NCBI GenBank assembly: GCA_964431835.1 | Contig: CAYSKO010000002.1 | Span: 137,632-201,631 of the forward strand | Origin: an uncultured Planctomycetia bacterium | Lineage (GTDB): Bacteria > Omnitrophota > Gorgyraeia > 2-02-FULL-51-18 | DNA length: 64,000 nucleotides | Reading direction: 5' to 3' | Shown here: piece by piece, positions 47,661-64,000 of the stretch | Layout: each line of letters opens with the position of its first letter | Numbering within the stretch: the first letter of the stretch is position 1 | Notes under the pieces: generated by a model | The model's input: only the letters and a program-made list of their open reading frames with translations | What the model was told of the DNA's origin: nothing | Databases searched by the model: none | Translations under genes and position numbers: made by a program

Positions 47661-48368
47661 TCAGGATGTCTCCGGGGACAGCGTCTTCACGAACTTAGCG
47701 GGCGTGCCGGCGAAGAGACAATTCGGCGGGACTTCCGCCCCCTTCGGCAGGACCGAGCGGGCCGCGATTACGGCGCCGTCTCCGATGACGCAGCCCGGCA
47801 TGATGACCGCTCCGAGACCGATCGTGACCTTGCGCCCGATACGCGTCGGCCTCAGTTTCAATTTTCCCCGCTCGGCCAGGTGCCCCAAAACGACCGCGTC
47901 GCCTCCGATGACCGTGCCGTCACCGATTTCCAGCATCGAAACGTCCGCGAGACCCTTCGAGTTGATCTGGACGCCCCGGCCGATTCGGGCGCCCATGAGC
48001 CGGTAATAGAGGGGCAGAAGCGGCGTCAGGCGCATGAAATCCATGAACGTCAGATTCACGATGAGCATCATCGCGTTGACGAACGCCCACACGAAGCCGT
48101 TCCAGGTGAAGAACCCGAATTCCCCTTCCTTCAAGCGTGCTCCCAGCACGAAACGAAGAAGGACGGTGAGCGCGGCCAGCGTAAGACCGAATAAGAAATA
48201 ACCGAACCCCGCCCCGGCGCCGAGCGCGAGCGCCCGACAAATCAACGACCCGGAAACGGAATACTTCCAAAGCGCAAGCGTCAGGACGAACGCGGGCGTC
48301 AGCGCAACGGTCAAAAGACAGCCGCCCAGCGAATACATGAAGAGCGTGAACGCCCACTGGCCCAGCAC
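47661..48368 (-). CDS. Membrane protein with four N-terminal TM helices fused to a C-terminal hexapeptide-repeat (left-handed beta-helix) acyltransferase domain
   Basis: TM region followed by IGDGTVIGGDAVVLG...IGLGAVIMPGCVIGDGAVIAARSVL (hexapeptide repeats). Confidence 0.6.
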   Translation of the reverse strand: MLGQWAFTLFMYSLGGCLLTVALTPAFVLTLALWKYSVSGSLICRALALGAGAGFGYFLFGLTLAALTVLLRFVLGARLKEGEFGFFTWNGFVWAFVNAMMLIVNLTFMDFMRLTPLLPLYYRLMGARIGRGVQINSKGLADVSMLEIGDGTVIGGDAVVLGHLAERGKLKLRPTRIGRKVTIGLGAVIMPGCVIGDGAVIAARSVLPKGAEVPPNCLFAGTPAKFVKTLSPETS

Positions 48369-48379
48369 GAGCGATGGTT

Positions 48380-48802
48380 TCAGGCGAGTTTGGCGTCCAG
48401 CGTGATTTCCGCTTTGAGAAGCTTCGAAATAGGGCAGCCCGTCTTCGCCGCTTCCGCCGCCTTCTCGAACGCCGCTTTATCGGCGCCGGGCGCCGAGACC
48501 TTCGAATCGAGATGCACTTTGGTCACCGTCCACCCCGCGTCGAGTTTCTCGAGCGTGAGCGACGCCGTCGTCTCCACGCTCTGCGGAACGATGTTCGCGC
48601 CGCCGAGCTGCGCCGAGAGCGCCATCGAGAAGCAGGCCGCGTGCGCCGCCGCGATGAGCTCTTCGGGGTTCGTGCCCTTGCCGTTCTCGAAGCGGGTGCC
48701 GAAGGAATACTGCGTCTTATCGAGAACGCCGCTCTCCGAGGAGACCGAGCCCTTACCGTCTTTTAAGCCGCCTTGCCAAACCGCCGATGCTTTTCGAATC
48801 AT
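48380..48802 (-). CDS. OsmC/Ohr-family peroxiredoxin-like protein
   Basis: ...AACFSMALSAQL...TGCPISKLL (the two conserved Cys of OsmC). GGAGG Shine-Dalgarno. Its promoter is in repeat copy A. Confidence 0.85.
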   Translation of the reverse strand: MIRKASAVWQGGLKDGKGSVSSESGVLDKTQYSFGTRFENGKGTNPEELIAAAHAACFSMALSAQLGGANIVPQSVETTASLTLEKLDAGWTVTKVHLDSKVSAPGADKAAFEKAAEAAKTGCPISKLLKAEITLDAKLA

Positions 48803-48834
48803 GGGATACGACCTCCGTTTTAAATGCGTGTGCT

Positions 48835-48906
48835 TTATTTTAACACGGGAAGAACGAAAGGGCTTATACGTTCGTGCGCGGACGGCCGCCGAGGACGAAG
48901 GGGTTC
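48835..48906. repeat. Direct repeat copy A (about 72 bp; 3 mismatches versus copy B). Contains a remnant of 13 codons (NPFVLGGRPRTNV-stop) plus an extended -10-like TGTTAAAAT.
   Basis: ttattttaacacgggaagaacgaaagggcttatacgttcgtgcgcggacggccgccgaggacgaaggggtt. Confidence 0.8.
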
Positions 48907-48913
48907 CGCTTGG

Positions 48914-50020
48914 TCACGCGAAGAATTTCCGCACGCAATCGGCGGCGTGCAGTGCTTCCTCCCGGCGGAGCTCGGGGTACATCGGCAGCGAGAGCGACTT
49001 CGCGGACGCTTCTTCGCTGAAAGGGAAATCGCCGGGCTTGTGCCCGAGCGGCGCGTAGCAGGGTTGAAGGTGGAGCGGGAGCGGATAATAGACGCCGTGA
49101 CCAATCTTCTTCTCGGTCAGATGCGCGGCGAGCGCGTCGCGCCGGTCGGTCCGGATCGTGTACAGGTGGTAGACGTGTTCGTATCCCTCGGGAACGGCCG
49201 GGGTCTCTAGCGGCAGGCCGCGTAGCGCCTCGTCGTAGATCGCGGCGAGCGTGCGGCGCTTCGCGTTCCACTCGTCCACGTATTTCAGCTTCACACGCAC
49301 CACAGCCGCCTGCAATTCGTCCAGCCGGCTATTGATGCCGACGATCTCGTGGTGGTATTTCTTCTTCGAGCCATGCACGCGCAGAACGCGCAGGCGCGCG
49401 GCGAGCGCGTCATCGTTCGTCGTGATCATGCCGCCGTCTCCGGCGCCGCCCAGGTTCTTCGTCGGGAAGAACGAGAGGCATCCAGCCGACCCGATACCGG
49501 CGGTCATGCGGCCGCGGTGGCGCGCGCCGTAGGACTGCGCGGCGTCTTCCAAAACCGCGATTCCCCTTTTTTCCGCGATCGCCTGGAACGCGTCCATGTC
49601 GGCGGAAAGGCCGAAGAGATGGACCGGAACGACGGCTTTCGTGCGCGCCGTGAATTTCGCCTCGGCCTTCGCAGGGTCGAGGTTGAAGGTCTCCGGGTGG
49701 ATGTCGGCGAAGACGGGTGTCGCGCCGGTGCGCGAGATCGATCCCGCGGTCGCGAAGAAAGTGAACGGCGTCGTCACGACCTCGTCGCCGGGGCCGACGC
49801 CGAGCGCCCAAAGGGAGAGATAGAGCGCGTCGGAGCCCGAAGCGACGCCGATCGCGTGCTTCACGCCGACGCGGGCGGCGATGTCCTTTTCAAGACCTTC
49901 GACGTTCTCTTTCAGGATGAACTGCTGGGAGTCGACGACGCGGGCCAAGGCTGCTTTCACTTCGTCGCCGATCTTCGCCTTCTGCTCGGTGAAATCGATG
50001 AAACGGACTCCCCTGCTCAC
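48914..50020 (-). CDS. DegT/DnrJ-family sugar aminotransferase (WbpE-like candidate). Paralog of the partial gene at 63025..64000.
   Basis: (V)[41 protein letters not shown]...[22 protein letters not shown]...HG. GTG overlaps the acetyltransferase stop (GTGA). Confidence 0.85.
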
Positions 50021-50595
50021 GCTTCGCCCTTCACGCCGGCCTTCGTCTTCGAGAATTTCGCGCCGCACCGGTTGCACACGGTTTTCTTGCCCGCGAAACG
50101 CAGGCGTTCGCCACAGGAGCACATCCAGCCGGCGACGCGGGCCGGAGACCCGAGAACGAGCGCATGGTCCGGTACTTCCCTCGTGACCACCGATCCGGCG
50201 CCGATAAAAGAGTAACGGCCGAGAGCGACGCCGCAGACGATCGTGCTGTTGGCGCCGATCGTCGCGCCCTTCTTCACGACCGTCTTCCCGTATTCGTTCT
50301 TACGAGAGACGTGCGCGCGCGGGTTCTTCACGTTCGTGAACACGCAGGAGGGGCCACAAAAGACATCGTCTTCGAGGACGACGCCGTCGTAGAGAGAGAC
50401 GTTGTTCTGGATCTTCACGCGGTCGCCGACGACGACGCCCTTGGCGACGAATACGTTCTGGCCGATCACACAATCGCGGCCGAGCGACGCGCCGTCCATC
50501 ACGTGGCAAAAATGCCACACTTTGGTCCCGTCGCCGACGGAGGCGCCGGGATGGACTTCGCTCGACGGATGGACGTAAAAAGGTCGCTTAGACAT
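50017..50595 (-). CDS. Hexapeptide-repeat N-acetyltransferase (WbpD/PglD-like candidate) with C-terminal Cys4 zinc-ribbon
   Basis: Left-handed beta-helix repeats ([24 protein letters not shown]...) and C-terminal [23 protein letters not shown]. Confidence 0.8.
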
Positions 50596-50691
50596 GAAGG
50601 CCCATTATGTCCGATTCGCCGCCGGTTCGGCAACGGAATTCAAGCAGTAGACGTCCAGAGGAAATCCGAACCCCGGAGCCCGGCTCGCGCC

Positions 50692-50762
50692 TTATTTTGA
50701 CACGGAAGAACGAAAGGGCTTATACGTTCGTGCGCGGCCGGCCGCCGAGGACGAAGGGGTTG
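50692..50762. repeat. Direct repeat copy B. Here it forms the genuine 3' end of gene 50720..52483 (last 13 codons plus 28 bp downstream).
   Basis: ttattttgacacggaagaacgaaagggcttatacgttcgtgcgcggccggccgccgaggacgaaggggtt. Confidence 0.8.
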
Positions 50763-52483
50763 AAGTAGTCGTCGAAGGCGGGGCGGTCCATCATCACGGC
50801 CCACGCCGAGGTGAGCGTGGGTACGGGGTTCGCCCACCAGCCGAAAATAATGTAATACCGGCGATTGGAATAATTGTAGGCGACGGAACCGTCGTCGAGA
50901 AGGACTTTGAGCGTTTCGACGCCGTCTCGCATCGTCCGCGCGTCGGTGCGGAGTTCCTCGGCCCAGAGCGCGTGCTCCCGGTTGCCGCCGTTCCGGTGAA
51001 GCGTTTCGTAATGGCGGGCCGTCTCTTTGGCCATCAAGATCGCCCCGAACGTCCACTCCGAAGAAAGGACGTCGTGGCCCGCCGTGAAGCCGACGCCTCG
51101 CAGGACGCCGTTCTCGTAATAACCCGCGATTTCTTTGGTTTTTTTCCACAAACGATAGGCGGTGCTTTCGTCTCCCCCGCCGATCTCGCGGTTCACCCAG
51201 CCCGCGCCCAAAACCGCGAGACCCCACGTCTGCACGTCCACAGCGAACTCCGGCGCGGCGTGGAACTCTCCGCCGATCCAGAACCCTCCCTGAAGAAACG
51301 TCCCCTCGGGACCGAGCAGGTGCTTCCGGAAATAATCCTCCATCCCCTCGCGCACCTTCACCCCGCGCTCGGTGCCTCGGATGATCCGTTCGAGAGTTTC
51401 AAGATGCGCGGCGGCCTCGGGGAGATCGCGGTGCGGTTCGAGCGCCTCGGCGAGCATGCGAAGCGCCGCGACCATCGAAAAGTTGTTCTCGTTCGAGATA
51501 TCGCGCGGATGTTTGCCGTGAACGCCGGTCGGGACGTGGTAAATCGCGCCGATCGAGCTCTGCATCGCGTCGATTGCCGGCAGGAGGCTCAGCGCGAGCG
51601 CGAGCTCTTCGGATTCCCACGGGACGGCGCCACCGTTCTTGAGGTAAGACGTTTGAAGGGGTCCGATGATGGCGGCCCAAGAATTTTCACCGGTGATCGG
51701 CTTCCAGTCCTCATGGTGGAGAGCAGGCGTGTTGGGGAAGCCGTCGAACGCGTCTTTCTGGTCGAGCGGGTCGCGCATCCGGTAAATATCGGAAACCATG
51801 CGGAAGAAAAAGGCGTTTTCGCGCTTCACCTCCCGCTCCTGTTCACCATAACGGAACGGGAAATCCCACGCGCGAATGTCGTAGATATCGCCGCTGCGGC
51901 CGGCACTCAGGCGCGTCGTGTGCGCGTCGGCTTCCTCAAAGTTCCCGGAGAGAGCCATCGCGATCTGCCACGTGGCCGCGTCGTAGAGATTCACCGCGCC
52001 GGCGTCCGCAAAGCCGGCCTCGCCGGTCAAGATACGCTCCATGATGTCCTCGAGCCTGGCCGGGTCGGACTGGATCGACTGCCAATAGCCTTTCGGAGGC
52101 CGGTAGCTGAGAGGCAGGCCCCAAGGCGTCTTGTTGGCGCGCAGGAACTTCACGATCGCATCCCGGCCCGCGTCCGAATACTCGAAACGGGGAACGGCCG
52201 TGGCAGATCCGGTGGGAGCGGAAGGTACGGGCTGCGGCGGCGGGAGCGCCGACAAAAGACGTCGGCGTTCTTTGATCGCATCTAGCATGATCGCGTCGGC
52301 GGCGAGGCGATTCTCGGCGGAAGCCGCTTTCTCCACGGCCTCGACGAATGCGGCGTTCGCGGCGAGGCGCAGACGCTCGTCTTCGCCCGCGGCGCGCACG
52401 ACCGGGACGAAGAGAGAGACAGCGAGAACCGTGACCGCCGTCTTCGGGAGGATACTTTTAAAAAAGTTTGAAGCGGTGAGCAA
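50720..52483 (-). CDS. Secreted or anchored protein of uncertain function; weak resemblance to (alpha/alpha)6-type glycoside hydrolases. ORF extends to 53089, but the upstream part is R-rich and overlaps the YfhO-like gene.
   Basis: (L)TASNFFKSILPKTAVTVLAVSLFVPVVRAAG signal/anchor, then a large soluble domain. TTG start 2 nt after the upstream TAG. Confidence 0.4.
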   Translation of the reverse strand: MLTASNFFKSILPKTAVTVLAVSLFVPVVRAAGEDERLRLAANAAFVEAVEKAASAENRLAADAIMLDAIKERRRLLSALPPPQPVPSAPTGSATAVPRFEYSDAGRDAIVKFLRANKTPWGLPLSYRPPKGYWQSIQSDPARLEDIMERILTGEAGFADAGAVNLYDAATWQIAMALSGNFEEADAHTTRLSAGRSGDIYDIRAWDFPFRYGEQEREVKRENAFFFRMVSDIYRMRDPLDQKDAFDGFPNTPALHHEDWKPITGENSWAAIIGPLQTSYLKNGGAVPWESEELALALSLLPAIDAMQSSIGAIYHVPTGVHGKHPRDISNENNFSMVAALRMLAEALEPHRDLPEAAAHLETLERIIRGTERGVKVREGMEDYFRKHLLGPEGTFLQGGFWIGGEFHAAPEFAVDVQTWGLAVLGAGWVNREIGGGDESTAYRLWKKTKEIAGYYENGVLRGVGFTAGHDVLSSEWTFGAILMAKETARHYETLHRNGGNREHALWAEELRTDARTMRDGVETLKVLLDDGSVAYNYSNRRYYIIFGWWANPVPTLTSAWAVMMDRPAFDDYFNPFVLGGRPRTNV

Positions 52484-52485
52484 AA

Positions 52486-54846
52486 CTATCGGGCGGATCT
52501 TCGCAAGGCGCGAAGCGCGAGAAAGACGAGAGCGAGAACCCATCCCGCGGCGGCGGCCCATTCGCAGCCACGCACCGCTGCGGAGACCGGCCGGTGAAAA
52601 AGAATCTCGTGGCGGCCGGACGGCACCCACGCCCCCATGAACGCGTGGTTCACTCGAACGAGTGGCACGGCATTCCCGTCGAGCTCGGCTCGCCAGCCGG
52701 GGTAATGGCTTTGCGAGAAAACGCAAAGCGCCACCGACTTCACGTCCAGGAGCGCTTTCACGAAGTCCGGCCGTCGAGTGAGTATCCGCGCGTGAACCAT
52801 CGGCGCGTCGTCGATCGGAGGAAGCGGCGGCGGCACGTCGTCCGTTTCGACGACCGCCTCGAGCTTCGGAAGAAAATCGGGACCCTTCAAATGCGCAAGG
52901 CGCCGCGAAACGTCGGTCATCGCCTGCCAGCGGTAAACGGCATACACGAGCGGCGACACGCCCGCGTTCTCGTAAAGGAAGCGGCCGCCCGCCTCGTCCA
53001 GAAGCCGGAACCCTCCCATCGACAGCTTTTCGTCGGAGACGGCAAGCCCCACGCCCAGCGAATCGATGAGCCCGCTCTGCCGGCCCCATGTCTCTGCCGA
53101 CAGCGGAAAACGCCCGAGCGAAGCGTCGGAAATGCCGAGCTCCTTCGTGAGCGTGTAGTGGCGCTCGAGGAGAAGAGGCGAATAAGCGCCGGGATGCGAG
53201 AGTCCGTGCAGCATGTTCATGCTCGGTTCGAGGAGCGCGGGTTCACGGCGCGCCCACTCGATCACGCGGCCCGCCCCGAAGCGAGGTGCTTCCTTCCCGG
53301 CCAACTCGACCGCCGCGTGCGCCTTCGCGGGCGGATAGGGCTTGGCGTTCTTGACGAAACCGGTGCTAAAGGCGGCGCCCGTCGCCGCGAGATCGAGCGT
53401 GACGAGAGCGGCTAACCCCCACGCCAGAGCTTCGCGCCGGTCCGCGCGTCCCGCGGCCGCAAGGAGAAGCGCTGCCGTAAGGAGCCCAAGTGCTCCCGCG
53501 TACAGATTCCAGGGGTTCAGCGGACGAACGACGTCGGCCGCCCGCGCGAGCGTCGACCGCACGGTCGCGTGATACTCTTCCACGGGCTTCATCTTGTCCG
53601 TCTTCGACGCGTAAGCGGCGTCGGCGAGACTCCGGCCATATTCGGCGATCTTCGGTTCCGCCGCACGGTAAGTGGCGGACGCCGCGGACGGCAGGAGCAC
53701 GCACAGCGCGGCGAGCACCGCGATCGCCCTTCTCTGCCCCTTCAAGAGAGGCCCGGCGAAGGTTTTCGCGAAACCGAAACCGGCCAGCACCGCCAGGGAC
53801 GCCAGGGTGAAAAAGAGGAACTTCGAGGGATTCCGGAGCGCGGTCAGCGGCAGTCGCTCAACCGCCAGCGCGTAGAGCGGGTTGTATTTGCCGAACGCCA
53901 GGAGAAGAAAAAGAAGCGCGGTCCACGCGTGCGCGCGTTCGACCGGCGTCTTTCTGGAAAAAAGCGCGGCAGCCGCGAGAAAAAGCGGCGCAATGCCCAG
54001 GAAAAGCGTGACACGCAGAAGCGGGCCCCATTCGGGGAACAAAAAAGATGCGAGTGCGGGCGGCGGAAGCGATCCCCAAAGCGCGAAGGCGCTGTCGGCG
54101 CCGGCGCGGGCGGATTCACCTGCGAGCTCGAGCGTTTGAAGGATCTGCGGCGACGCGAGGACGAAGCCCACGAGCGCACCGACGGCGAGGACCGGAAGCG
54201 TGCGTTGGCGGCCGGGCTCGAGAGTGGTCAGAACGAGAACGTAGAGCGCCGCGTACGCGGCCGCCTGCGGAAAACCGCCGGTCCCCATAAGCCCAAAACA
54301 GACACCCGCACCCGCCGCCGCCGCGCCGAGTCCGGCCGCATTCGGTGCGCGGCGCGCGGCGTCGAGCGCCAGGAGCGTCCACGGCACCCACGTCAGCACG
54401 CGGAGCGTGCCCATCGTGTAAAAACACCCGCCGTAACCGCTCGAGAACGAAAAAACGACTGCGGCCAGAGCGGCGGCGCGTTCCCCGAGGCCGATCCGCC
54501 GTCCGTAAACGTAAAAACCGATGCCCCCCACCAAAAGATGCGCCGGCACCGTCCAGGAATACGCGGCCTTGAACGGCAGAAGAAGGAAAAAAAGAATATT
54601 CGGTGGATAGTACGCCGCGACTTGGCCCTCGGCGACGAGCGGAAAACCGCATGCGATGAGATCGGTCCAGTACGGGAGCGTTCCCTGTTTCAGGCTCTGG
54701 GAGAGCGCGAGCGCCCACGGATGGAACTGGACGCCATTGTCCCCCACCAGGAAAGCCGTCCGGACGAGAAGGAGGGGTCCCGTGAAAAAAACGAAGAGCG
54801 CGCCGAAGAAAAGGAGGAAGAAGGCGTGGCGGCGGAGAAAAATCAT
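52486..54846 (-). CDS. YfhO-family large polytopic membrane protein (GT-C-like glycosyltransferase implicated in envelope glycosylation)
   Basis: MIFLRRHAFFLLFFGALFVFFTGPLL... more than 12 TM helices plus a C-terminal domain; paired with a DPM1-like GT2. ATG overlaps the upstream stop by 1 nt (TGATG). Confidence 0.65.
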   Translation of the reverse strand: MIFLRRHAFFLLFFGALFVFFTGPLLLVRTAFLVGDNGVQFHPWALALSQSLKQGTLPYWTDLIACGFPLVAEGQVAAYYPPNILFFLLLPFKAAYSWTVPAHLLVGGIGFYVYGRRIGLGERAAALAAVVFSFSSGYGGCFYTMGTLRVLTWVPWTLLALDAARRAPNAAGLGAAAAGAGVCFGLMGTGGFPQAAAYAALYVLVLTTLEPGRQRTLPVLAVGALVGFVLASPQILQTLELAGESARAGADSAFALWGSLPPPALASFLFPEWGPLLRVTLFLGIAPLFLAAAALFSRKTPVERAHAWTALLFLLLAFGKYNPLYALAVERLPLTALRNPSKFLFFTLASLAVLAGFGFAKTFAGPLLKGQRRAIAVLAALCVLLPSAASATYRAAEPKIAEYGRSLADAAYASKTDKMKPVEEYHATVRSTLARAADVVRPLNPWNLYAGALGLLTAALLLAAAGRADRREALAWGLAALVTLDLAATGAAFSTGFVKNAKPYPPAKAHAAVELAGKEAPRFGAGRVIEWARREPALLEPSMNMLHGLSHPGAYSPLLLERHYTLTKELGISDASLGRFPLSAETWGRQSGLIDSLGVGLAVSDEKLSMGGFRLLDEAGGRFLYENAGVSPLVYAVYRWQAMTDVSRRLAHLKGPDFLPKLEAVVETDDVPPPLPPIDDAPMVHARILTRRPDFVKALLDVKSVALCVFSQSHYPGWRAELDGNAVPLVRVNHAFMGAWVPSGRHEILFHRPVSAAVRGCEWAAAAGWVLALVFLALRALRRSAR

Positions 54847-55583: not shown

Positions 55584-56854
55584 GTGGAGCGAGACGCCTC
55601 GACGACACGCGGTTCGGGCAGCGGCACGATGAATTTGCCGCGGTATCCCCTCGCGAAGAGCTTTGGAATCAGCTCATCGGCGATGTGCCAGGAAAGAAGA
55701 AGCGCGTATTCGGGCTGGTCCTCGAAAAGCTTCGATTCCTCGAGAACGGGGATCAGCGTGCCCGGCATGTACTTTCCGATCTTGTATGAACCCTTAATCT
55801 CAAGCACGCAGTCGACGATCGCGTCGTCGAGCCCGACGTAGTTGACGAGCGTACTCGCCCGGGACGGCGCCCCGATCGCATAAATGCGCGCGTTCTTCTT
55901 CTTGGCTTCGAGAAGGAGTGCGTGGAGCGTCATCTTCGAGCGGACGACCCCTTCGCGAAAGCGTTTCACGACCGATTTCGTCTCGGGTTCGGAGGCGAGC
56001 ATCTCCGCCACGGACGGACGCACCGGGTACGCACCTTTCTTGGCGGCATACACGCGAATCGAGCCGCCGTGCGTGGGGATTCTTTTTGCGTGAACCACTT
56101 CAAGGCCGTGGCGCTCGAGGAGATATTTCAGGCTTCGCAGCGAATAGTAGCGCAGATGCTCGTGGTAGATCGTATCGTACTGCAAGGTCTCGACGAGCGG
56201 AACCCAGTAGTGCGACTCGGAAACGAACATCCCCTTCTCGCCGAGCATGTGAACAACTCCCTCGACGATCGAATGGACGTCCTCGATGTGAGCGAACACG
56301 TTCGTCGCAGTCACGATCGACGCGGGCCCCTGCTCGGAACGCGCGCGCCGGGCGGCTTCCGCGCCGAAGAAAGCGGTCAGAGTCGGGATGCCGCGCGAAG
56401 CCGCGACTTTGCCCATGTCGGTTGGCTCGATGCCGAACACGCGGTGCCCGCCTTCTTTGAAATTCGAAAGAAGCGTCCCGTCGTTGGAGCCGACGTCGAC
56501 GACGAGGCTCTCGGGATCGAGGGGCAGGAGCGTGCGGCATTCGCGGTAGAGCTCGGCGAAATTCTCGCGGAGAATTTTCGTCGTACCGCTCGAATAGGGA
56601 TATTCCGGAGGAAAAAGGATCGCCGGATCGACCACGAGCCCGAGCTGGACGAGGTCGCATGCGGGGCAATGGAGAAGCTCGGCCGGATACGCCGGCTGTT
56701 CCTTCGGTCGCTCGCCGATCTTCCACATCTGGTTCACCGGCGGAAGGTAGCCGAGGAATAGGATCGATTCCAGATTCCGACCTCCGCAAACCTGACAGCA
56801 CTCGACGGTCACGCTCCCGCCGGTTCCGGCTGCGAGCTTAGAACTAGGATTCAT
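55580..56854 (-). CDS. SAM-dependent C-methyltransferase (NDP-hexose C-methyltransferase-like; zinc-finger N-terminus, Methyltransf + C-methyltransferase C-domain)
   Basis: CCQVCGGRNL...CPACDLVQL; VVDVGSNDGTLL (motif I). ATG overlaps the upstream stop (ATGA). Confidence 0.7.
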   Translation of the reverse strand: MNPSSKLAAGTGGSVTVECCQVCGGRNLESILFLGYLPPVNQMWKIGERPKEQPAYPAELLHCPACDLVQLGLVVDPAILFPPEYPYSSGTTKILRENFAELYRECRTLLPLDPESLVVDVGSNDGTLLSNFKEGGHRVFGIEPTDMGKVAASRGIPTLTAFFGAEAARRARSEQGPASIVTATNVFAHIEDVHSIVEGVVHMLGEKGMFVSESHYWVPLVETLQYDTIYHEHLRYYSLRSLKYLLERHGLEVVHAKRIPTHGGSIRVYAAKKGAYPVRPSVAEMLASEPETKSVVKRFREGVVRSKMTLHALLLEAKKKNARIYAIGAPSRASTLVNYVGLDDAIVDCVLEIKGSYKIGKYMPGTLIPVLEESKLFEDQPEYALLLSWHIADELIPKLFARGYRGKFIVPLPEPRVVEASRST

Positions 56855-57843
56855 GAAACGGGCTCCTTTGCGTTTGGCGCCATGTGCGCGTGGGCGGCGT
56901 ACCATTCGGCGGTGCGGCGTACGCCTTCGGCGAGCAGAACGCGGGGCTTGTAGCCGAGCGCCTCGAGCTTGCGGATGTCCGGGCAGCGGCGGAGCGTTCC
57001 GCCTTTAGCCGCCTCGCCGGGCACGAGTTCGATCGAACGGCCGAACGGCGCGGCCACGTGGTGGGCGAGCTCGGCGATCGACGTCTCTTCCGACGTGCCG
57101 ATGTGATAGATCCCCAGATGAGCGCCCTTTTCCACGACGAGCATGAGCCCGTCCGTGAAGTCGTCCACGTGGACGAACGCGCGTGTCTCCCGGCCGCTGC
57201 CTTGGATCCGGAATTGGAGCGTGCCGGAGCTTTGGGCGTCCGAAAGACGCTTCATGCGAAGTGCAAACTGCGGAACGACGTGCTCCCAGCCCATGTCGGG
57301 GCCGTAGACGTTGTGCGGACGGAAGATCACCGCCCGCTTGAAGCGCGTGCGGGCCCAGTTGACAAGCATCACCTCGCTGATGAGCTTCCCCGCGCCGTAG
57401 GAGTAGCGAGCGTTGAGGACATCCGGAACGACGAGCGGGACATCCTCGGGAGTCGGCACGACCGCCGGGGTCTGGTAGGCCTCAGAGCTCGAGGCGAGCA
57501 CGAATTCGGGCACGCGGTTCTCGACGCACGCGTCGAGCGCGTTCAGCATGCCGCGCACTCCCACGTCGAGGACGAGCTCCGGCTTCGTGTAGAAAAATTC
57601 GGTTCCGTTCACGAACGCGAGGTGGCAAAAAACATCCACGCCCCGCGCGGCGTTTTTCACGGCGGCGGCGTCTCGCACGTCACCCTCGATGAACTCGATG
57701 TCGCCGGATGCGCCTTCCAAGCGGCGCGCGGCACCCCGCGAGAGATTGTCGAGAACCCGCACGCGGTTTCCGGCAGCGAGAAGCTTCTTTACGAGCGCGG
57801 CGCCGAGGAACCCGGCGCCTCCGGTAACGAGGTAAGTTTTCAT
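56851..57843 (-). CDS. NAD-dependent epimerase/dehydratase (SDR)
   Basis: MKTYLVTGGAGFLGAALVKKLL...YSYGAGKLISE (YxxxK). ATG overlaps the upstream stop (ATGA). Confidence 0.8.
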   Translation of the reverse strand: MKTYLVTGGAGFLGAALVKKLLAAGNRVRVLDNLSRGAARRLEGASGDIEFIEGDVRDAAAVKNAARGVDVFCHLAFVNGTEFFYTKPELVLDVGVRGMLNALDACVENRVPEFVLASSSEAYQTPAVVPTPEDVPLVVPDVLNARYSYGAGKLISEVMLVNWARTRFKRAVIFRPHNVYGPDMGWEHVVPQFALRMKRLSDAQSSGTLQFRIQGSGRETRAFVHVDDFTDGLMLVVEKGAHLGIYHIGTSEETSIAELAHHVAAPFGRSIELVPGEAAKGGTLRRCPDIRKLEALGYKPRVLLAEGVRRTAEWYAAHAHMAPNAKEPVS

Positions 57844-58865
57844 GCGCAGGACACCCATGCTTTCTTGTCGTCCGATTCGTCGACGGCCTCGAGAAGCTCC
57901 TGAACGCGAGCGCCGTCGGCGAGCGTGGGTCCGGTCTTCTCTCCCCGCTCGATCCAGCGGGCCCAGCGCGAGAGCATCGAAGCCACGAGCGGGATCCGTC
58001 CGTCGCCGGAAACTTTAGGTTCGTTGACCGCGACGTCGGCAAGGTAGTTGCCCGAGGCCCGCGTGCCGTAACGCAGGCGAAAACCGGCCGCGTGGTCGGG
58101 ACCGGCGTTCTCGAGGACGAGCGCCCCTTTGTCACCGTAGAACTCGATCCGGTGGCCGCTTCCGAGGAACGCATCGGTCCCGATGACGGCCGCACCCGCG
58201 GCGCCCGAAGCGAATTCGAAAGAGTAATGGGCGAGGGTCTTTCCGCGCTCGGGTTTGCCGGGAGCGGCGTACGACCGCGCTGAAAGGCGCTTGGCCGGGC
58301 CGAGGAACCACTCAAGATAATGCAGGACGTGCGAAGCGAACTGGTAGGAGACGCCGCCGCCGGACTCGTCCGCGTGCTTCCAGGTGTCGAGGCCCATCTT
58401 GATGGCGTAGGTTTCGATCTGCCACGAGACAGACGCTTGCCGGAGCGTGCCGATGCCGCCCTTGCGGAGGATCTCGCGGGTGCGGCGCCACGCTGGAATT
58501 TCGCAGAGTTCGAAATCGACGAGATTCGCGACGCCTTTCTCGTGGGCGAGATCGGCCATGCGCCGGGCGCGCCGGGCGTCTACGCCCAGAGGCTTTTCGC
58601 AGAAGACGTGCTTTCCGCGCTTCATCGCGGCGAGCGCGATCTCGGGTTGGAGCGAAGGAGGGACGGCGATGACGACGGCGTCTATTTCCGGATCAGCGAC
58701 GAGGCGGCTCCAATCGCCGTAAGAGCGCGCGATGCCCGTGCGGGCGGAGGCGGAGGCGGCACGCGCGTCGGTGGACGCGCAGATCGCCGCTGGTTCGAAG
58801 CGCGGAACCGCGCGGAGCGCCGGCAGGATCACTCTCTCGCCGAAACCCGTCCCCACGAGCCCCAC
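57840..58865 (-). CDS. Gfo/Idh/MocA family oxidoreductase (WbpB-like candidate)
   Basis: (V)GLVGTGFGERVILPAL...FCEKPL. GTG start 20 nt after the upstream TAA; the R-rich ORF extension is not credible. Confidence 0.7.
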   Translation of the reverse strand: MGLVGTGFGERVILPALRAVPRFEPAAICASTDARAASASARTGIARSYGDWSRLVADPEIDAVVIAVPPSLQPEIALAAMKRGKHVFCEKPLGVDARRARRMADLAHEKGVANLVDFELCEIPAWRRTREILRKGGIGTLRQASVSWQIETYAIKMGLDTWKHADESGGGVSYQFASHVLHYLEWFLGPAKRLSARSYAAPGKPERGKTLAHYSFEFASGAAGAAVIGTDAFLGSGHRIEFYGDKGALVLENAGPDHAAGFRLRYGTRASGNYLADVAVNEPKVSGDGRIPLVASMLSRWARWIERGEKTGPTLADGARVQELLEAVDESDDKKAWVSCA

Positions 58866-58885
58866 CCGGATAGATCCGCGCTTGC

Positions 58886-60112
58886 TTATATCCGCACCCC
58901 TTTCCCGAAGAAGCCCCAAATGTCGACCAGGGGCTTCCCCTTCGTCTCGAGCGCGCGGTACGCCTTGTGCGGCACACAGAGAATGAGGACGTCGCTTTTT
59001 TTCACGACCTCCTCGACCGGCAGGAGTTCGGCGTCGGTGGTCACGTGCGGATCGGCCGTGAGCACGCGGCGGCAATGGAATGCGAGCACCTTCTTGAGTT
59101 TATAACTGAGCGACGCGCGCGTGTCGTCGCTATTGGCCTTGAACGCCATACCCAAGAGGCCGACCGTCAGGTTCTTTAGGTCGTATTTTTTTTCCATCTG
59201 GCCGACCATGTAGAGGACGAGGCCTTCGTTGATCGTCATCGCGGCGTGGCCGAGACTGAAATTGTTGTCGGAGAAAGCGGCGAGCTGCATCGTGTCCTTG
59301 AAAAGACACGGACCCGCCGCGAAACCGGCGCCCGGCATGTCGGCGGCACGCGGGTAGTCCTTTTTCATCCCCTCGAGGATGCGCGCGTAATCGGCGCCGG
59401 CCGAGTGCGCGATCATGAAAAATTGGTTCGAGACGGCGAACTGGACGTAGCGGTAGGCGTTGTTGAAAAGCTTCGCGAATTCCGCCTCGAGCGGCGAAAG
59501 ACGCACGACACTCGGCGCCACGCGCTCGAAAAGCCGGGCGGCCTCGCTTTCGGATTCCTTCGTCGTTCCGCTAACGATCTGCGGCAGACGCTGGAGCTCC
59601 TCGATCGCGTGCCCCTGGACGACTCGTTCCGGACAAAAGGCGATCTTGAGCTTCCGGCCCTGGGATTTAAGGTAGCTCTCGAGCCATTGTGTGGTGCCGG
59701 GATAAACGGTGGACCGGAGAACGACGAGCTGGCCGTCGGTGAGGTTCGGAAGCAGGTCGTCGAAGCAGTGCTTCATGACCTTCGTGTCCGGATTCATGAA
59801 TTCGTCGACCGGCGTGCCGATTGTGACAACAACCGTGGTGACTCCCGCGATGTCGCGGGGATCGGAGGAAAAAAGGAGATTGCCGCCTTTCAGCGCTTTC
59901 TTAAGGAGAGCTTCCCCGCCCTGCTCCATGAAAGGCAGCACGCCTTTGCGGATGCGACGGAGCGAGTCGCGGTTGATGTCGTAGACGACGACGCGGAGGC
60001 CCTTGTCGGCGAACACGAGCGCCAGCGGCAGGCCGACGTGACCGGCTCCGCCGACCACGCAGACGTCCGCCTTTCGGACCGAAGCGGGCTTTTTCGTTGT
60101 CGTCTTTTTCAT
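58886..60112 (-). CDS. Nucleotide-sugar dehydrogenase (UDP-glucose/GDP-mannose dehydrogenase family; WbpA/WecC-like candidate)
   Basis: MKKTTTKKPASVRKADVCVVGGAGHVGLPLALVFA...CPERVVQG...GAGFAAGPCLFKD (catalytic Cys). ATG overlaps the upstream stop (ATGA). Confidence 0.85.
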   Translation of the reverse strand: MKKTTTKKPASVRKADVCVVGGAGHVGLPLALVFADKGLRVVVYDINRDSLRRIRKGVLPFMEQGGEALLKKALKGGNLLFSSDPRDIAGVTTVVVTIGTPVDEFMNPDTKVMKHCFDDLLPNLTDGQLVVLRSTVYPGTTQWLESYLKSQGRKLKIAFCPERVVQGHAIEELQRLPQIVSGTTKESESEAARLFERVAPSVVRLSPLEAEFAKLFNNAYRYVQFAVSNQFFMIAHSAGADYARILEGMKKDYPRAADMPGAGFAAGPCLFKDTMQLAAFSDNNFSLGHAAMTINEGLVLYMVGQMEKKYDLKNLTVGLLGMAFKANSDDTRASLSYKLKKVLAFHCRRVLTADPHVTTDAELLPVEEVVKKSDVLILCVPHKAYRALETKGKPLVDIWGFFGKGVRI

Positions 60113-60660
60113 CGCGCTCCCCGGCGCTCCCCCTCGGGCGCCATGCGTCCGCGGGCCACCGCGAGCGCCAGCACCGAGAGGTTCAGCGAGTGATCGAAGC
60201 GCCCGTCGCGCACCGCGCGCCAAAAAGCGGACCGCGTCACCGTCTCGACGCGGATTCCGGCCTCAGGGCCCTTCGAACGAGTGGATAGTTTAACATCGGG
60301 TGCGAAATAACACCATAAGCGGTTGGACATCCGGCCCATGTCGGTCGCGAGGACCCCGATGAATTCGAGCCGCCGCGCCTGGTAACCGGTCTCCTCCAGA
60401 AGCTCGCGCTTGATCGCGCGCTCCGGCTTCTCGCCTCGCTCGACCATTCCGCTCGGGAACTCGAGCGTCCTACGCTCGACCGCCGCACGAAACTGGCGCA
60501 CGAGGACGATCTTACCCTCTGCGGTGACGGGGATCACGGTCGAATAATCGCCGAGCGCGAGCGAATAATAGGCATCGCCCTTTTCACCGGTGACGGTTTT
60601 TGCGACCACCCTGAACCAGGCGGTCTCGAACACGGTCTCGCGCTTGGAAATACGGCTCAA
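60109..60660 (-). CDS. NUDIX hydrolase
   Basis: GMVERGEKPERAIKRELLEETG (Nudix box). TTG start overlaps the upstream stop (TTGA). Confidence 0.7.
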   Translation of the reverse strand: MSRISKRETVFETAWFRVVAKTVTGEKGDAYYSLALGDYSTVIPVTAEGKIVLVRQFRAAVERRTLEFPSGMVERGEKPERAIKRELLEETGYQARRLEFIGVLATDMGRMSNRLWCYFAPDVKLSTRSKGPEAGIRVETVTRSAFWRAVRDGRFDHSLNLSVLALAVARGRMAPEGERRGAR

Positions 60661-62282
60661 GCTTCGTCCTCCCTCAGGTCGTAAACGAAGATGGAATGCC
60701 CAATCACGGCGGTAGGCTGGATCTCCGTGGTCCACCGGACGGCGTCGATTCCGTGCGCGCCGATCGCATAGAAGTTGGCTTGCGGCTCTTCCATCTCGGC
60801 GGGCTCGAGCGGCCGCGTCCAAATGCGGTATTGGCGGGGGTCGGCCGGGCCATAATAAAAGAGCGCAACTTCCGGATTTCCCACGCGTTTCACGTACGCG
60901 GCAAGAGACGGTAGATCCTGCCCCCAATCAAGATTCGAATCCCGCAGAATTCGGTACCCTTTGTCGGGCCCTCCGGAAGCTTCATTGAAGTACGCGAGCG
61001 GGTGAGGAAAGATCAGTGCCGCCGAAAGCGCGTGCCACGCCAAGAGCGCCGCGGCGAGAGCTTTCCACGCGCGCCCGCGCGCCCAAAGATAGGCGAGCGT
61101 GGCACCCGACAGCGCGAAGAGTAAAGGATAGATCGGGAGAAAATAACGGATTCCCGCCTGCGCGCGGTCGTTCAGGGTGGCCGCGAAGAAAAAAGCAACG
61201 GGAACGAGGCAGACGGCCGCGTCGAGCCGCGGCAAGCGCAGGCGGCGGACCAGGAAGAAAGAGCTGATCGAAAGAAAGACGAAAGGCAGCGTGTTTTTCA
61301 CCGCGAAGGCGATGAAATAGTAATACCACCAGCCTTTGCCCGACCACTCCCCGAGAAGAAACGCGTTCGTCCCCCGCGCGCGCGTCACAAGCATGCTGAC
61401 AAGGGCCGACGAAAAGGTGGAAAGCGGCACCGGCGCCTGCCGGGCGAACCGAACGAAAGACTCTCCGCCGACGCTCCGGTAAACGGCCTCTTTCTTGGCA
61501 GGATCCGGCGTGTTCTCGAGAAGCGGTTTCAGCTCGAAACAGTAACCGGCCCAGATGGTCAGGAGCGTGACGCCGAGGAACCCGGCGATTTTAGCGGGCG
61601 AAAGAGCCCGGAAACGGCCGCCGAAAAGCGCGATGAGCGGCAGGAGCGGCAGGAGGACGAGCGCCGTAAACTTCGAAAGGAAAGCGGCGCCGGCCCAAAC
61701 CCCGGTCGTGAGCGCTTTTTTCCAGCTGGGTTCCTCGAGGTACGAGCCGAAACCCGCGAGCGTCAAAAAAATGAAGAAGGCCACGGCCAGATCCGCCGTG
61801 GCGAGCGAAGAGTGTGCGATCACGTTCGGACAGAACGCGTAGAGCGCGAGCGCGCCGAGCGCCGCGGCCGGTCCGAATCTCCGGCGCGTCCAAGCGAACA
61901 GCACCGCGCCGAAAAGAAGCGAGAGCACGAGGATCGGCAGGCGCGCGAGGACGATCAACCTCTGCGCGTCTTCGCCCGACTCGTAGAAGAATTTTCGCGC
62001 GTAGGCGGGAGCGTTGCCTTCGCGCCAGGAGACGTCGTCGAGCGGCGCGCGGACGCGGGTGAAAAGAAGCGGCAGGGCGGTCAGCATCCGGGGTAGCGGC
62101 GGCGAAGCAGGGTTCATACGGAAGTCGCGCGTGACCCAATACGAGTGGCCGCTCGGGACGTGGTGCGAAAACTCGTCCGACGTCGGCGACTGAGAGAAGA
62201 CCGGCGGCACGGCCTGCAGGCAGAGCGCGCCGAGAAGAAGGGCCGCGAGGAGGTTTTCCCGGCGGAAGAACGCCGCGTTCAC
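60657..62282 (-). CDS. GT-C membrane glycosyltransferase (PMT_2/ArnT-like)
   Basis: About 11 TM helices plus a periplasmic C-domain. Immediately downstream of a DPM1-like GT2. GTG overlaps the upstream stop (GTGA). Confidence 0.7.
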   Translation of the reverse strand: MNAAFFRRENLLAALLLGALCLQAVPPVFSQSPTSDEFSHHVPSGHSYWVTRDFRMNPASPPLPRMLTALPLLFTRVRAPLDDVSWREGNAPAYARKFFYESGEDAQRLIVLARLPILVLSLLFGAVLFAWTRRRFGPAAALGALALYAFCPNVIAHSSLATADLAVAFFIFLTLAGFGSYLEEPSWKKALTTGVWAGAAFLSKFTALVLLPLLPLIALFGGRFRALSPAKIAGFLGVTLLTIWAGYCFELKPLLENTPDPAKKEAVYRSVGGESFVRFARQAPVPLSTFSSALVSMLVTRARGTNAFLLGEWSGKGWWYYYFIAFAVKNTLPFVFLSISSFFLVRRLRLPRLDAAVCLVPVAFFFAATLNDRAQAGIRYFLPIYPLLFALSGATLAYLWARGRAWKALAAALLAWHALSAALIFPHPLAYFNEASGGPDKGYRILRDSNLDWGQDLPSLAAYVKRVGNPEVALFYYGPADPRQYRIWTRPLEPAEMEEPQANFYAIGAHGIDAVRWTTEIQPTAVIGHSIFVYDLREDEA

Positions 62283-63028
62283 CGCGCCGAGGTCCGGCCG
62301 AAGTAAAGCCGCACGAGAGAAAAATAGCCCGAGATCGTCTTGAGGGGCCGGTTCTTGCTCTTCCCCGGCTTCTTGCCGTAATCGAGCGTGAACGGGACCT
62401 CGACGATCCGCGCGTCGAGGAGACGCATCTTGATGAGGATCTCCGGCGTGACGACGAAACCCTTGTGCGGCAGGCGCACGAAATTCTCGCCGAAGGTGTC
62501 GAAGGCGCGTTTCAGGATGGACGCGCGGAAAACCCGGTAGCCGCAGCTGTATTCCTGCACGCCCGGGATCGGGAAGAAAACTTTGAGGAAAAGCCCTGCG
62601 CCGCGCGAGAGGACGCTTCGGACCGGCGAGAGACCCTTCTCCCCGCCGCCGGGTGCGTAGCGCGAAAGGATGGCGACGTCCGCGCCTTCGCGGAGCTTCG
62701 CGAGTGCGGCGTGCACGTACTTCGGCTCGTGCGTGTCGTCGCAGTCGAGCGTCACGACCGCGTCGCCGGGCGCGGCTTCACGCGCGCAGTGCTCGAGGCC
62801 GTCGATCATCGTACGTCCGAGCCCCTGGTTTTTCTCGTGACGAAGCAGCGTAAGCGGATAAACCATGCCCAGGCGCCGTGCGGCCTCGGCCGTGCCATCA
62901 GTCGAGCCGTCGTCCAAGACGACTATCTTATAAAGCTCCGCGCCGCGCGAAAGCTCGGCGTCGAACTTCGGCACCAGCCGCTCGAGAGCGACTTCTTCGT
63001 TGTACGCCGGCAGGAAGACCCAGATCAT
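62279..63028 (-). CDS. Polyprenyl-phosphate sugar synthase, GT2 (DPM1/ArnC-like)
   Basis: MIWVFLPAYNEEVALERL...IVVLDDGSTDGT...LDCDDTH. ATG overlaps the upstream stop (ATGA). The R-rich ORF extension to 63619 is not credible. Confidence 0.8.
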   Translation of the reverse strand: MIWVFLPAYNEEVALERLVPKFDAELSRGAELYKIVVLDDGSTDGTAEAARRLGMVYPLTLLRHEKNQGLGRTMIDGLEHCAREAAPGDAVVTLDCDDTHEPKYVHAALAKLREGADVAILSRYAPGGGEKGLSPVRSVLSRGAGLFLKVFFPIPGVQEYSCGYRVFRASILKRAFDTFGENFVRLPHKGFVVTPEILIKMRLLDARIVEVPFTLDYGKKPGKSKNRPLKTISGYFSLVRLYFGRTSAR

Positions 63029-64000
63029 CGACGGAAGAATTCGCGCACCGCCTCGATCACGAGGTCGGCGTCGGCGTCGGAAAGCTCGGGGAACATCGGG
63101 AGCGAAAGAACTTGCGTGGCGGCCTTCTCGGATTCGGGGAAATCCCCTTTCCGGTAACCGAGATCCGAATAACAGGGCTGGAGATGGAGCGGCAGCGGAT
63201 AGTACACGCCGGTGCCGATTCCCCGTTCGCGCAGGAACTTTGCGAGTTCGTCGCGGCGTTCGCACGCCACGGTATAAAGATGGTAGACGTGCTGGCTGCC
63301 TTCGGGGGCCGTCGGAAGGCGCAGCGGAAGCCCCTCCAGACCCTTCGCGTAGCGCGCGGCGAGGGCGCGCCGACGGGCGTTCCAGTCGTCGATCCTCTTC
63401 ATTTTCACAAGAAGCACGGCGGCCTGCAGCTCGTCCAGGCGACTGTTCACGCCGACGATGTCGTGATGGTACTTCACCTGCGAGCCGTGGTCGCGAAGGA
63501 GCCGAACGCGGTCCGCGAGGTGCGCGGACGACGTGAGCACCATGCCGCCATCCCCCGCGCCGCCCAGGTTCTTCGTGGGGTAGAACGAAAGGCAGGCGGC
63601 GTCGCCGAGGGAGCCGCACTTTTTGCCGTGGTACGTGGCCCCGTACGACTGCGCGGCGTCCTCGACGACTGCGATGCCGTCCTTCTTCGCGGTCTCCATG
63701 ATCGGCCCCATGTCGCAGGAGAGACCGAAAAGGTGAACGGGAATGATCGCCTTCACCTTCGAGGTGATCCGCGATTCGACCCGTTCTTCGTTCAGGTTGT
63801 ACGTCGCCGAATCGATGTCGACGAAGACGGGCGTGGCTCCCGCGCGCGAAACGGCTCCGGCGGTCGCGAAGAACGTGAATGGAGTCGTGACGACGTGGTC
63901 GCCGGGCCCGACGCCGAGAGCGACGAGCGATAGGTAGAGCGCGTCCGATCCGGATGCGAGGCCGATGGCGTGTTTCGTTCCGAGCCGCGCGGCGATCTCG
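63025..64000 (-). CDS. DegT/DnrJ-family sugar aminotransferase, partial (N-terminus beyond the window end). Paralog of 48914..50020.
   Basis: ...[39 protein letters not shown]...[19 protein letters not shown]...DHG...[13 protein letters not shown]. About 65% identical to the other copy over the aligned part. Confidence 0.8.
   Translation of the reverse strand, partial: EIAARLGTKHAIGLASGSDALYLSLVALGVGPGDHVVTTPFTFFATAGAVSRAGATPVFVDIDSATYNLNEERVESRITSKVKAIIPVHLFGLSCDMGPIMETAKKDGIAVVEDAAQSYGATYHGKKCGSLGDAACLSFYPTKNLGGAGDGGMVLTSSAHLADRVRLLRDHGSQVKYHHDIVGVNSRLDELQAAVLLVKMKRIDDWNARRRALAARYAKGLEGLPLRLPTAPEGSQHVYHLYTVACERRDELAKFLRERGIGTGVYYPLPLHLQPCYSDLGYRKGDFPESEKAATQVLSLPMFPELSDADADLVIEAVREFFRR

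Follow-up and report, generated by a model that had tools for sequence, protein, structure and literature searches.

Direct repeats of a gene 3' end bracket an acetyltransferase-aminotransferase pair in an Omnitrophota glycan-biosynthesis cluster

We analysed 64,000 nucleotides (nt) of DNA from an uncultured bacterium of the phylum Omnitrophota (assembly GCA_964431835.1, contig CAYSKO010000002.1, positions 137,632 to 201,631); this whole stretch is called the window. A sequence of about 72 bp occurs in it twice as a direct repeat and brackets two genes, one encoding a hexapeptide N-acetyltransferase and the other a DegT-family sugar aminotransferase. One copy of the repeat (copy B) is the 3' end of a gene that we call geneX, and the other (copy A) lies ahead of an osmC gene. 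All of the genes lie on the minus strand. Following the direction of transcription, one meets in turn a gene for a membrane protein of about 786 amino acids (aa), geneX, copy B, a spacer of 96 nt, the acetyltransferase gene, the aminotransferase gene, 8 nt and copy A. Copy A is followed by 33 nt that contain a GGAGG and lead to the osmC ATG, and osmC is followed by genes for a 235-aa hexapeptide protein and an alpha/beta hydrolase. The features from geneX to osmC are as follows.

50720..52483, minus strand: geneX, 587 aa, with a predicted N-terminal hydrophobic segment and a predicted (alpha/alpha)6-barrel-like fold; uncharacterised family.
50692..50761, minus strand: repeat copy B, the functional end of geneX, with its final 13 codons (NPFVLGGRPRTNV) and TAA, and about 28-31 nt of downstream DNA.
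50596..50691, minus strand: unique spacer of 96 nt between copy B and the acetyltransferase gene.
50017..50595, minus strand: WlbB/WbpD-like N-acetyltransferase, 192 aa, left-handed beta-helix (hexapeptide); Pfam Hexapep.
48914..50020, minus strand: DegT sugar aminotransferase, 368 aa, GTG start; Pfam PF01041, 2e-118.
48835..48905, minus strand: repeat copy A, a non-coding relic of the geneX 3' end with 13 former codons, the stop codon and about 29 nt downstream.
48380..48802, minus strand: OsmC-family peroxiredoxin, 140 aa; TIGR03562, 188.7 bits against a cutoff of 85.8; Pfam OsmC.

The final 42 nt of geneX and roughly the next 30 nt beyond the gene make up the repeat unit, which starts exactly at geneX codon N575. 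A repeat scan of the window identified a 58-nt core, 48848-48905 against 50704-50761, in which 57 of 58 positions are identical. With its extension, as aligned through the flanks and by word-7 BLAST, the match covers 48835-48905 against 50692-50761, that is 71 columns at about 96% identity. The initial annotation had reported the repeat with three mismatches; the repeat is confirmed, and the differences are in fact two substitutions and one 1-base indel. Within the window a 34-mer taken from the core has exactly two occurrences, and no match to it appeared in 100 dinucleotide-preserving shuffles. Copies A and B are the sole repeat of at least 35 nt above 81% identity in a scan of the whole 64 kb, and the remaining repeats are similarities of 70-81% among paralogous genes. 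A third copy was absent from the window, with three mismatches allowed and at a word size of 7. The wider search for copies of the 72-mer that had been proposed at the outset was equally negative: an exact 26-mer of the repeat is absent from the GTDB species representatives, from the Joint Genome Institute (JGI) contig collection (which did not return the source contigs either) and from viral contigs. RNA of the repeat and the intergenic region has no unusual fold stability (z -0.8 to +0.4) and no Rfam match at E <= 1. A dispersed intergenic repeat, such as a miniature inverted-repeat transposable element or a repetitive extragenic palindromic sequence (MITE/REP-like), was rejected because a search of the 64 kb down to word size 7 yields two copies only, 42 nt of the unit are coding, the z-score is near 0 and there is no Rfam match.

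The protein encoded by geneX has no sequence match in Pfam, NCBIfam or the PDB. Its homologues are numerous and come from metagenome-assembled genomes of Omnitrophota and Chlamydiae and, at about 30-36% identity, from eukaryote transcriptome sets. Almost every one has (F/Y)NPF(V/I)LGG close to its C-terminus, followed by a tail that varies, and in an alignment of 17 sequences residues P576, F577, L579, G580, and G581 are invariant. In an AlphaFold2 model of the protein (predicted local distance difference test score, pLDDT, 88) the C-terminal motif falls inside the confidently folded part of the (alpha/alpha)6-barrel-like domain. The model has weak Foldseek matches to the AGE/cellobiose-2-epimerase, GH76, and MmpH folds. 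Because the motif is invariant across the 17 homologues and confidently modelled, the coding part of copy B is native to geneX, and copy A is therefore the relic. The initial annotation had made the same assignment. It took copy B for the true gene end, which the invariant or near-invariant C-terminal NPFVLGG of the homologues supports, and it took copy A for a non-functional remnant, which agrees with a segment that starts 8 nt past the aminotransferase TGA, is out of frame with the aminotransferase and is untranslated.

The gene for the membrane protein of about 786 aa (52486-54846, minus strand) lies 2 nt ahead of the geneX start. This polytopic protein matches nothing in Pfam or NCBIfam. 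A partial gene holds the same position in L007, the contig of the geneX relative that is 62% identical.

The arrangement is found in more than one assembly. When the exact OsmC and geneX proteins were looked up, matching contigs came from three JGI samples and from three Logan runs, all of them 99.95-100% identical to the window. Independent JGI assemblies of the three samples (L001, L002, and L005) have the same arrangement: both copies are present in L001 and L002 with a spacing of 1,856 nt as in the window, and L005 provides an independent join of the aminotransferase gene to copy A and osmC. Logan unitigs (k=31) break exactly where an exact shared stretch of 34 nt predicts. Logan geneX contigs end 12 nt past the stop codon, osmC contigs begin 30 nt before the divergence point of the copies, and the aminotransferase contig has a length of 1,882 nt, which equals 1,856 - 4 + 30. 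An empty-site allele was sought in these graphs, where unitigs stop at the shared 34-mer in the same way for an empty or a filled site. Because the exact shared stretch is only 34-58 nt long, ordinary reads and large k-mers span the repeat. Copy-specific variants (a G/T site, described below, and the indel) are linked to their own flanks in every assembly. From the agreement of the assemblies and the linkage of these variants it follows that the arrangement is real in the dominant population. The initial annotation had allowed for a second copy created by assembly; three JGI assemblies that agree and Logan breakpoints that fit argue otherwise.

The insert between the copies measures 1.78 kb and comprises the 96-nt spacer, the acetyltransferase gene, the aminotransferase gene and the final 8 nt. 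As first annotated, it contains exactly two coupled genes, and the start of the aminotransferase gene overlaps the stop of the acetyltransferase gene by 4 nt. The best solved relative of the acetyltransferase is WlbB (3MQG/3MQH, 5e-64), which aligns over the full length (residues 8-181 against 6-182). The aminotransferase is also full length, with N- and C-termini that match its homologues. Its PDB relatives, at E values of about 1e-88 to 1e-114, are 7B0D (the best), DesV (2OGA), WbpE (3NU7, 4e-93), and QdtB. The WbpD/WlbB-WbpE module belongs to the synthesis of UDP-2,3-diacetamido-2,3-dideoxy-glucuronic/mannuronic acid, with WbpA- and WbpB-type partners and UDP-GlcNAcA as substrate. The pair resembles this module in its adjacent and overlapping acetyltransferase and aminotransferase genes, in the full-length WlbB alignment and in the presence of a nucleoside diphosphate (NDP)-sugar dehydrogenase, which passes TIGR03026, and of Gfo/Idh/MocA oxidoreductases in the same cluster. 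It differs in that the nearby Gfo/Idh/MocA protein lacks a specific WbpB/WlbA match and in that the best solved relative of the aminotransferase is 7B0D and not WbpE. The earlier description of the pair as a WbpD/WbpE-type module is fair at the family level, given the matches to WlbB and to C-3 sugar aminotransferases that include WbpE.

The window, from position 1 to 64000, is one minus-strand glycan-biosynthesis supercluster. Its sugar genes encode four DegT aminotransferases, three UDP-N-acetylglucosamine (UDP-GlcNAc) 2-epimerases, NeuB, a PseB-like dehydratase, the NDP-sugar dehydrogenase, and three Gfo/Idh/MocA oxidoreductases. The cluster also contains many GT2 and PMT_2 (GT-C) transferases, a carbamoyltransferase, a GNAT-formyltransferase fusion and a BNR/Laminin_G_3 protein of 1297 aa. 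The pair is of native type and belongs to the glycan pathway encoded around it; it is not foreign cargo. A foreign origin by composition was rejected because the G+C content (GC) of the insert is the same as that of its flanks, and the plasmid collection gave only distant DegT similarity. No integrase, transposase or other mobility gene was found among the open reading frames (ORFs) scanned across the 64-kb window, and no inverted repeats were found at the ends of the insert. Target-site duplications made by transposons are short, 2-15 bp. A transposon or insertion sequence was rejected for lack of a transposase and of such inverted repeats, and because the duplication here is about 72 bp. A dif/Xer-like site within the repeat was rejected by eye, since the arm-like stretches are about 30 nt apart and not 6.

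The nearest relatives of the proteins of this locus are 62-69% identical, and there is no conserved synteny around geneX. Apart from the organism itself, the best geneX match is the 62% identical protein of L007, whose gene is followed by an MgtC gene. We inspected 36 loci with geneX homologues of 28-62% identity, comprising the three contigs of the closest proteins (L007, L008, and L010) and 33 metagenome loci (L018-L050, 28-52%). None of them has an acetyltransferase gene, an aminotransferase gene, osmC or any other of the neighbours within about 6 kb. The pair is kept in all three of its nearest relatives, in which the aminotransferase is 65-69% identical, and the 4-nt overlap is kept in two of them (L011 and L052/53; in L051 the genes are called with a 23-nt overlap). 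The same two relatives have the pair at the head of the glycan cluster, directly after a radical S-adenosylmethionine (radical-SAM) gene of the menaquinone pathway and ahead of a gene for an MptA_B-family transferase. In the relatives the acetyltransferase gene starts 2-7 nt after the upstream gene, without a spacer. The head of the cluster in the window is occupied by another gene.

63025..64000, minus strand: P0149, a partial paralogous DegT aminotransferase at the cluster head, 61% identical to the aminotransferase of the pair.

The region beyond the window end is visible in contig L012, which overlaps window positions 56618-64000 at 99.97% identity. P0149 stands directly after the menaquinone radical-SAM gene, just beyond the window end, and it is a lone gene without an acetyltransferase partner (also in L012, 2230-3351). 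It is 59-64% identical to the enzymes of the relatives, and the aminotransferase of the pair is 65-69% identical to them. At the DNA level P0149 and the aminotransferase gene of the pair reach 78% at best, over a stretch of 206 nt. Since the relatives hold the pair in the head slot, which is taken here by a lone and more divergent DegT gene, gene order indicates that the present place of the pair, about 13 kb downstream at the cluster tail, is a derived state. The joining of glycan genes to the futalosine-pathway operon seems to be conserved in the lineage.

On the osmC side, relatives of the 235-aa protein (47-66% identical) have no adjacent osmC, and their partner is an alpha/beta hydrolase or a MarR regulator. 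The N-terminal half of the 235-aa protein itself (47661-48368, minus strand) is hydrophobic, and a hexapeptide domain lies at its C-terminus. In NCBIfam the protein best matches TIGR02353, the Pls/PosA-type nonribosomal peptide synthetase (NRPS) terminal domain, at 4.5e-26 and below the cutoff.

Variation among the assemblies bears on the age of the event. The population contains two haplotypes that are about 0.05% apart, and the insert is present in both. The sole difference between the cores, at position 50738 (G/T, synonymous CGG/CGT), is polymorphic. L002 has T at this position, and its two 58-nt cores are identical (L002 8042-8099). Because both haplotypes carry the insert and the cores are identical in one of them, the event appears to be recent. 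There are six single-nucleotide polymorphisms in 12.6 kb, one of which falls within the 72-nt segment. The T in copy B, as in copy A, is either the ancestral identical state or the result of gene conversion between the copies. Three differences between the copies are fixed (the indel, a T/C in a -10-like element and an A/G), and all three are confined to roughly the last 18 of some 76 columns. By our own estimate the chance of such clustering, if the differences were placed at random, is (18/76)^3 or about 0.013. This suggests that the non-coding tails of the copies were already different at the time of joining, and the clustered differences fit a join of two locus versions better than a duplication in place.

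We think it probable that the two copies are the scar of a recent duplicative recombination inside a large mosaic glycan cluster, and that they do not form an element with a function of its own. An origin of the arrangement by duplication or recombination had been among the initial proposals, and it remains the best reading. A recent duplicative recombination would have joined the acetyltransferase-aminotransferase pair between geneX and osmC, most likely through one-ended homologous pairing in the 3' region of geneX combined with an illegitimate join on the other side. The illegitimate join would be the point 8 nt past the aminotransferase stop that is fused to geneX codon N575, and the event would be a case of homology-facilitated illegitimate recombination. 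The same structure would also result from a single-crossover insertion (Campbell-type) or from template switching during replication, and each of the three routes keeps the end of geneX. Through the duplication, the conserved and structurally needed FNPFVLGG end of geneX would have stayed intact, and osmC would have retained about 70 nt that were formerly upstream of it, possibly including an extended -10 promoter. No dedicated mobility enzyme would have been involved.

Homology-facilitated illegitimate recombination and merodiploid or duplicative insertions are described for DNA uptake or replication (PMC3240628; PMC3784515). The locus is consistent with such an event in that one homologous and one illegitimate junction can duplicate a segment shared by donor and recipient without an element-encoded enzyme. 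It differs in that the event here is inferred from sequence and was not observed as it happened, and parental sequences are needed to read the microhomology at the junction. Several points weigh against a recombination scar. The collections searched contain no genome close enough to show the ancestral order, and therefore which side moved (the pair, the osmC side or the 72-mer alone) has to be deduced. The spacer has no similarity to the window, to the end of the radical-SAM gene or to the loci of the relatives. The clustering of the fixed differences could also have come about through selection on a promoter-like segment or through conversion of the core. Finally, the search for more copies and for a recombinase covered 64 kb of the genome and short flanks.

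Site-specific integration is an unlikely alternative origin. The repeats would then be the attL and attR sites of a minimal element, either trans-mobilised or like the CIMEs, that targets the 3' end of geneX and bears a replacement end, with its recombinase located elsewhere or lost. Duplicated gene 3' ends flank integrated DNA at attL and attR sites and in CIMEs, which are decayed cis-mobilizable elements (PMC5704250). The locus has this classic att geometry, in which direct repeats of a gene 3' end bracket the insert, the gene is intact and a relic lies at the far end. The core is perfect and the similarity decays on one side only, as it would from an element-borne copy of the target, and the insert lacks a recombinase as CIMEs do. 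However, neither the insert nor the scanned ORFs of the window include an integrase, recombinase or other mobility gene. The cargo between the repeats is just two metabolic genes of the native pathway type (1.86 kb with a repeat copy) with host-like GC, and in relatives the homologous genes are ordinary components of the same cluster. There is no sign here of an attachment-site core, of excision or of other insertions, and the site was not found elsewhere in any collection searched.

The idea that the 72-mer alone was copied is about equally improbable. It supposes that geneX, the acetyltransferase gene, the aminotransferase gene and osmC stood in this order ancestrally, and that a short dispersed duplication later put the end of geneX, with its downstream segment, before osmC, where it was kept as a promoter. 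It draws on two features of the osmC leader.

48837..48845, minus strand: TGTTAAAAT, an extended -10-like element in copy A; consensus match only.
48812..48816, minus strand: GGAGG, Shine-Dalgarno sequence, 9 nt from the osmC ATG.

The element and the GGAGG are 21 nt apart. Copy B has TGTCAAAAT at the place of TGTTAAAAT, so that copy A has the better extended -10 element and has it at a sensible distance from the GGAGG and the osmC ATG. TGTTAAAAT is also the sole TGNTAWAAT in the window, and the reuse of upstream segments of 50-100 nt is documented (PMC3488235). However, this single occurrence compares with 0.5 expected, and at least one is found in 39% of shuffles, so the count is not significant. 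A two-hexamer scan found no promoter in the repeat and no -35 element. In addition, coding sequence of another gene makes up 42 of the 72 nt, and a copied promoter would have no need of it. The conserved position of the pair in relatives is elsewhere, and in none of the 36 homologue loci does the pair stand downstream of geneX. A promoter in copy A is plausible from its sequence; the initial claim of an extended -10 element in the repeat, placed correctly to drive osmC, came from the one consensus match and is borne out neither by the motif count nor by the scan.

The two-hexamer scan did find a sigma-70-like TTGCCG-18-CATAAT (50633..50604, minus strand) in the unique spacer, which ends 8 nt before the acetyltransferase ATG. 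The acetyltransferase gene has no Shine-Dalgarno sequence. Because the predicted promoter is so close to the ATG and a Shine-Dalgarno sequence is lacking, the transcript of the pair may be leaderless or nearly so. A weak terminator-like hairpin lies just after copy B (50683..50666, minus strand). No terminator is predicted between the aminotransferase gene and osmC, and read-through into osmC is therefore possible.

Putative mobile promoters were defined by Matus-Garcia et al. 2012 as segments of at least 50 nt and at least 80% identity, located at -50 to -150 of two non-homologous genes that have non-homologous upstream genes (PMC3488235). The repeat is similar in being about 70 nt long, 96% identical and upstream of two non-homologous genes in one genome, and thus it agrees with the definition in identity and in non-homology. 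It falls short in length, as only about 38 nt common to both copies fall inside the -50 to -150 windows whereas at least 50 are required. It also differs in that a third gene's coding sequence accounts for most of the segment and in that the promoter is putative. The initial suggestion of a mobile promoter-bearing repeat fits poorly with two copies in 64 kb, with the absence of a 26-mer match from the collections and with a segment made up mostly of geneX coding sequence.

Less probable again is a large tandem duplication from the cluster head to the end of geneX, followed by deletions that left the pair and the last 72 nt. Such a series would shift the head pair to the tail and leave a relic of the geneX end, though this agreement is one of geometry only, and the cluster does have many paralogues. 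At least three events would be required, however. The spacer is unlike the end of the radical-SAM gene that precedes the pair in relatives and unlike the head region here, and the head-slot aminotransferase is only 61% identical to the enzyme of the pair, as against 96-100% for the 72-mer.

We give only a slim chance to a further possibility, that the 1,856-bp unit (repeat, spacer and two genes) is a minimal integrase-less cassette that moves between or within Omnitrophota glycan clusters. If it were, the copy of about 70 bp of the target gene end would serve as an address, and the unit would be excised as a circle by repeat-by-repeat recombination and re-inserted by a single crossover. This would amount to homology-addressed shuffling of sugar-modification modules, in which a glycan modification would be switched off by precise deletion. 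An assembly artefact or chance similarity is very hard to credit, for although the source is metagenome-assembled and repeats can be mis-joined, no shuffle gave a match, three independent JGI assemblies agree, ordinary reads span the short exact stretch and the copy-specific variants are linked to their flanks.

The statement in the initial annotation that no described example is known was too strong, since precedents exist (PMC5704250; PMC3240628; PMC3488235). The kinds of event involved are known, and the structure adds a new instance of them; it represents no new system or class of mechanism. Read as a recombination scar, the locus would provide a clean, recent and datable footprint of gene-order change in the very large glycan clusters of an uncultivated phylum. 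A two-gene amino-sugar module would have been moved or added without mobile-element machinery, by a duplication that preserved both the essential C-terminus of geneX and the upstream region of the downstream gene. The 58-72 bp of direct homology could bring about a precise deletion of the module, which would alter a cell-surface or glycoprotein sugar. The locus is of value because it illustrates operon remodelling and can serve as a marker when populations of the organism are studied.

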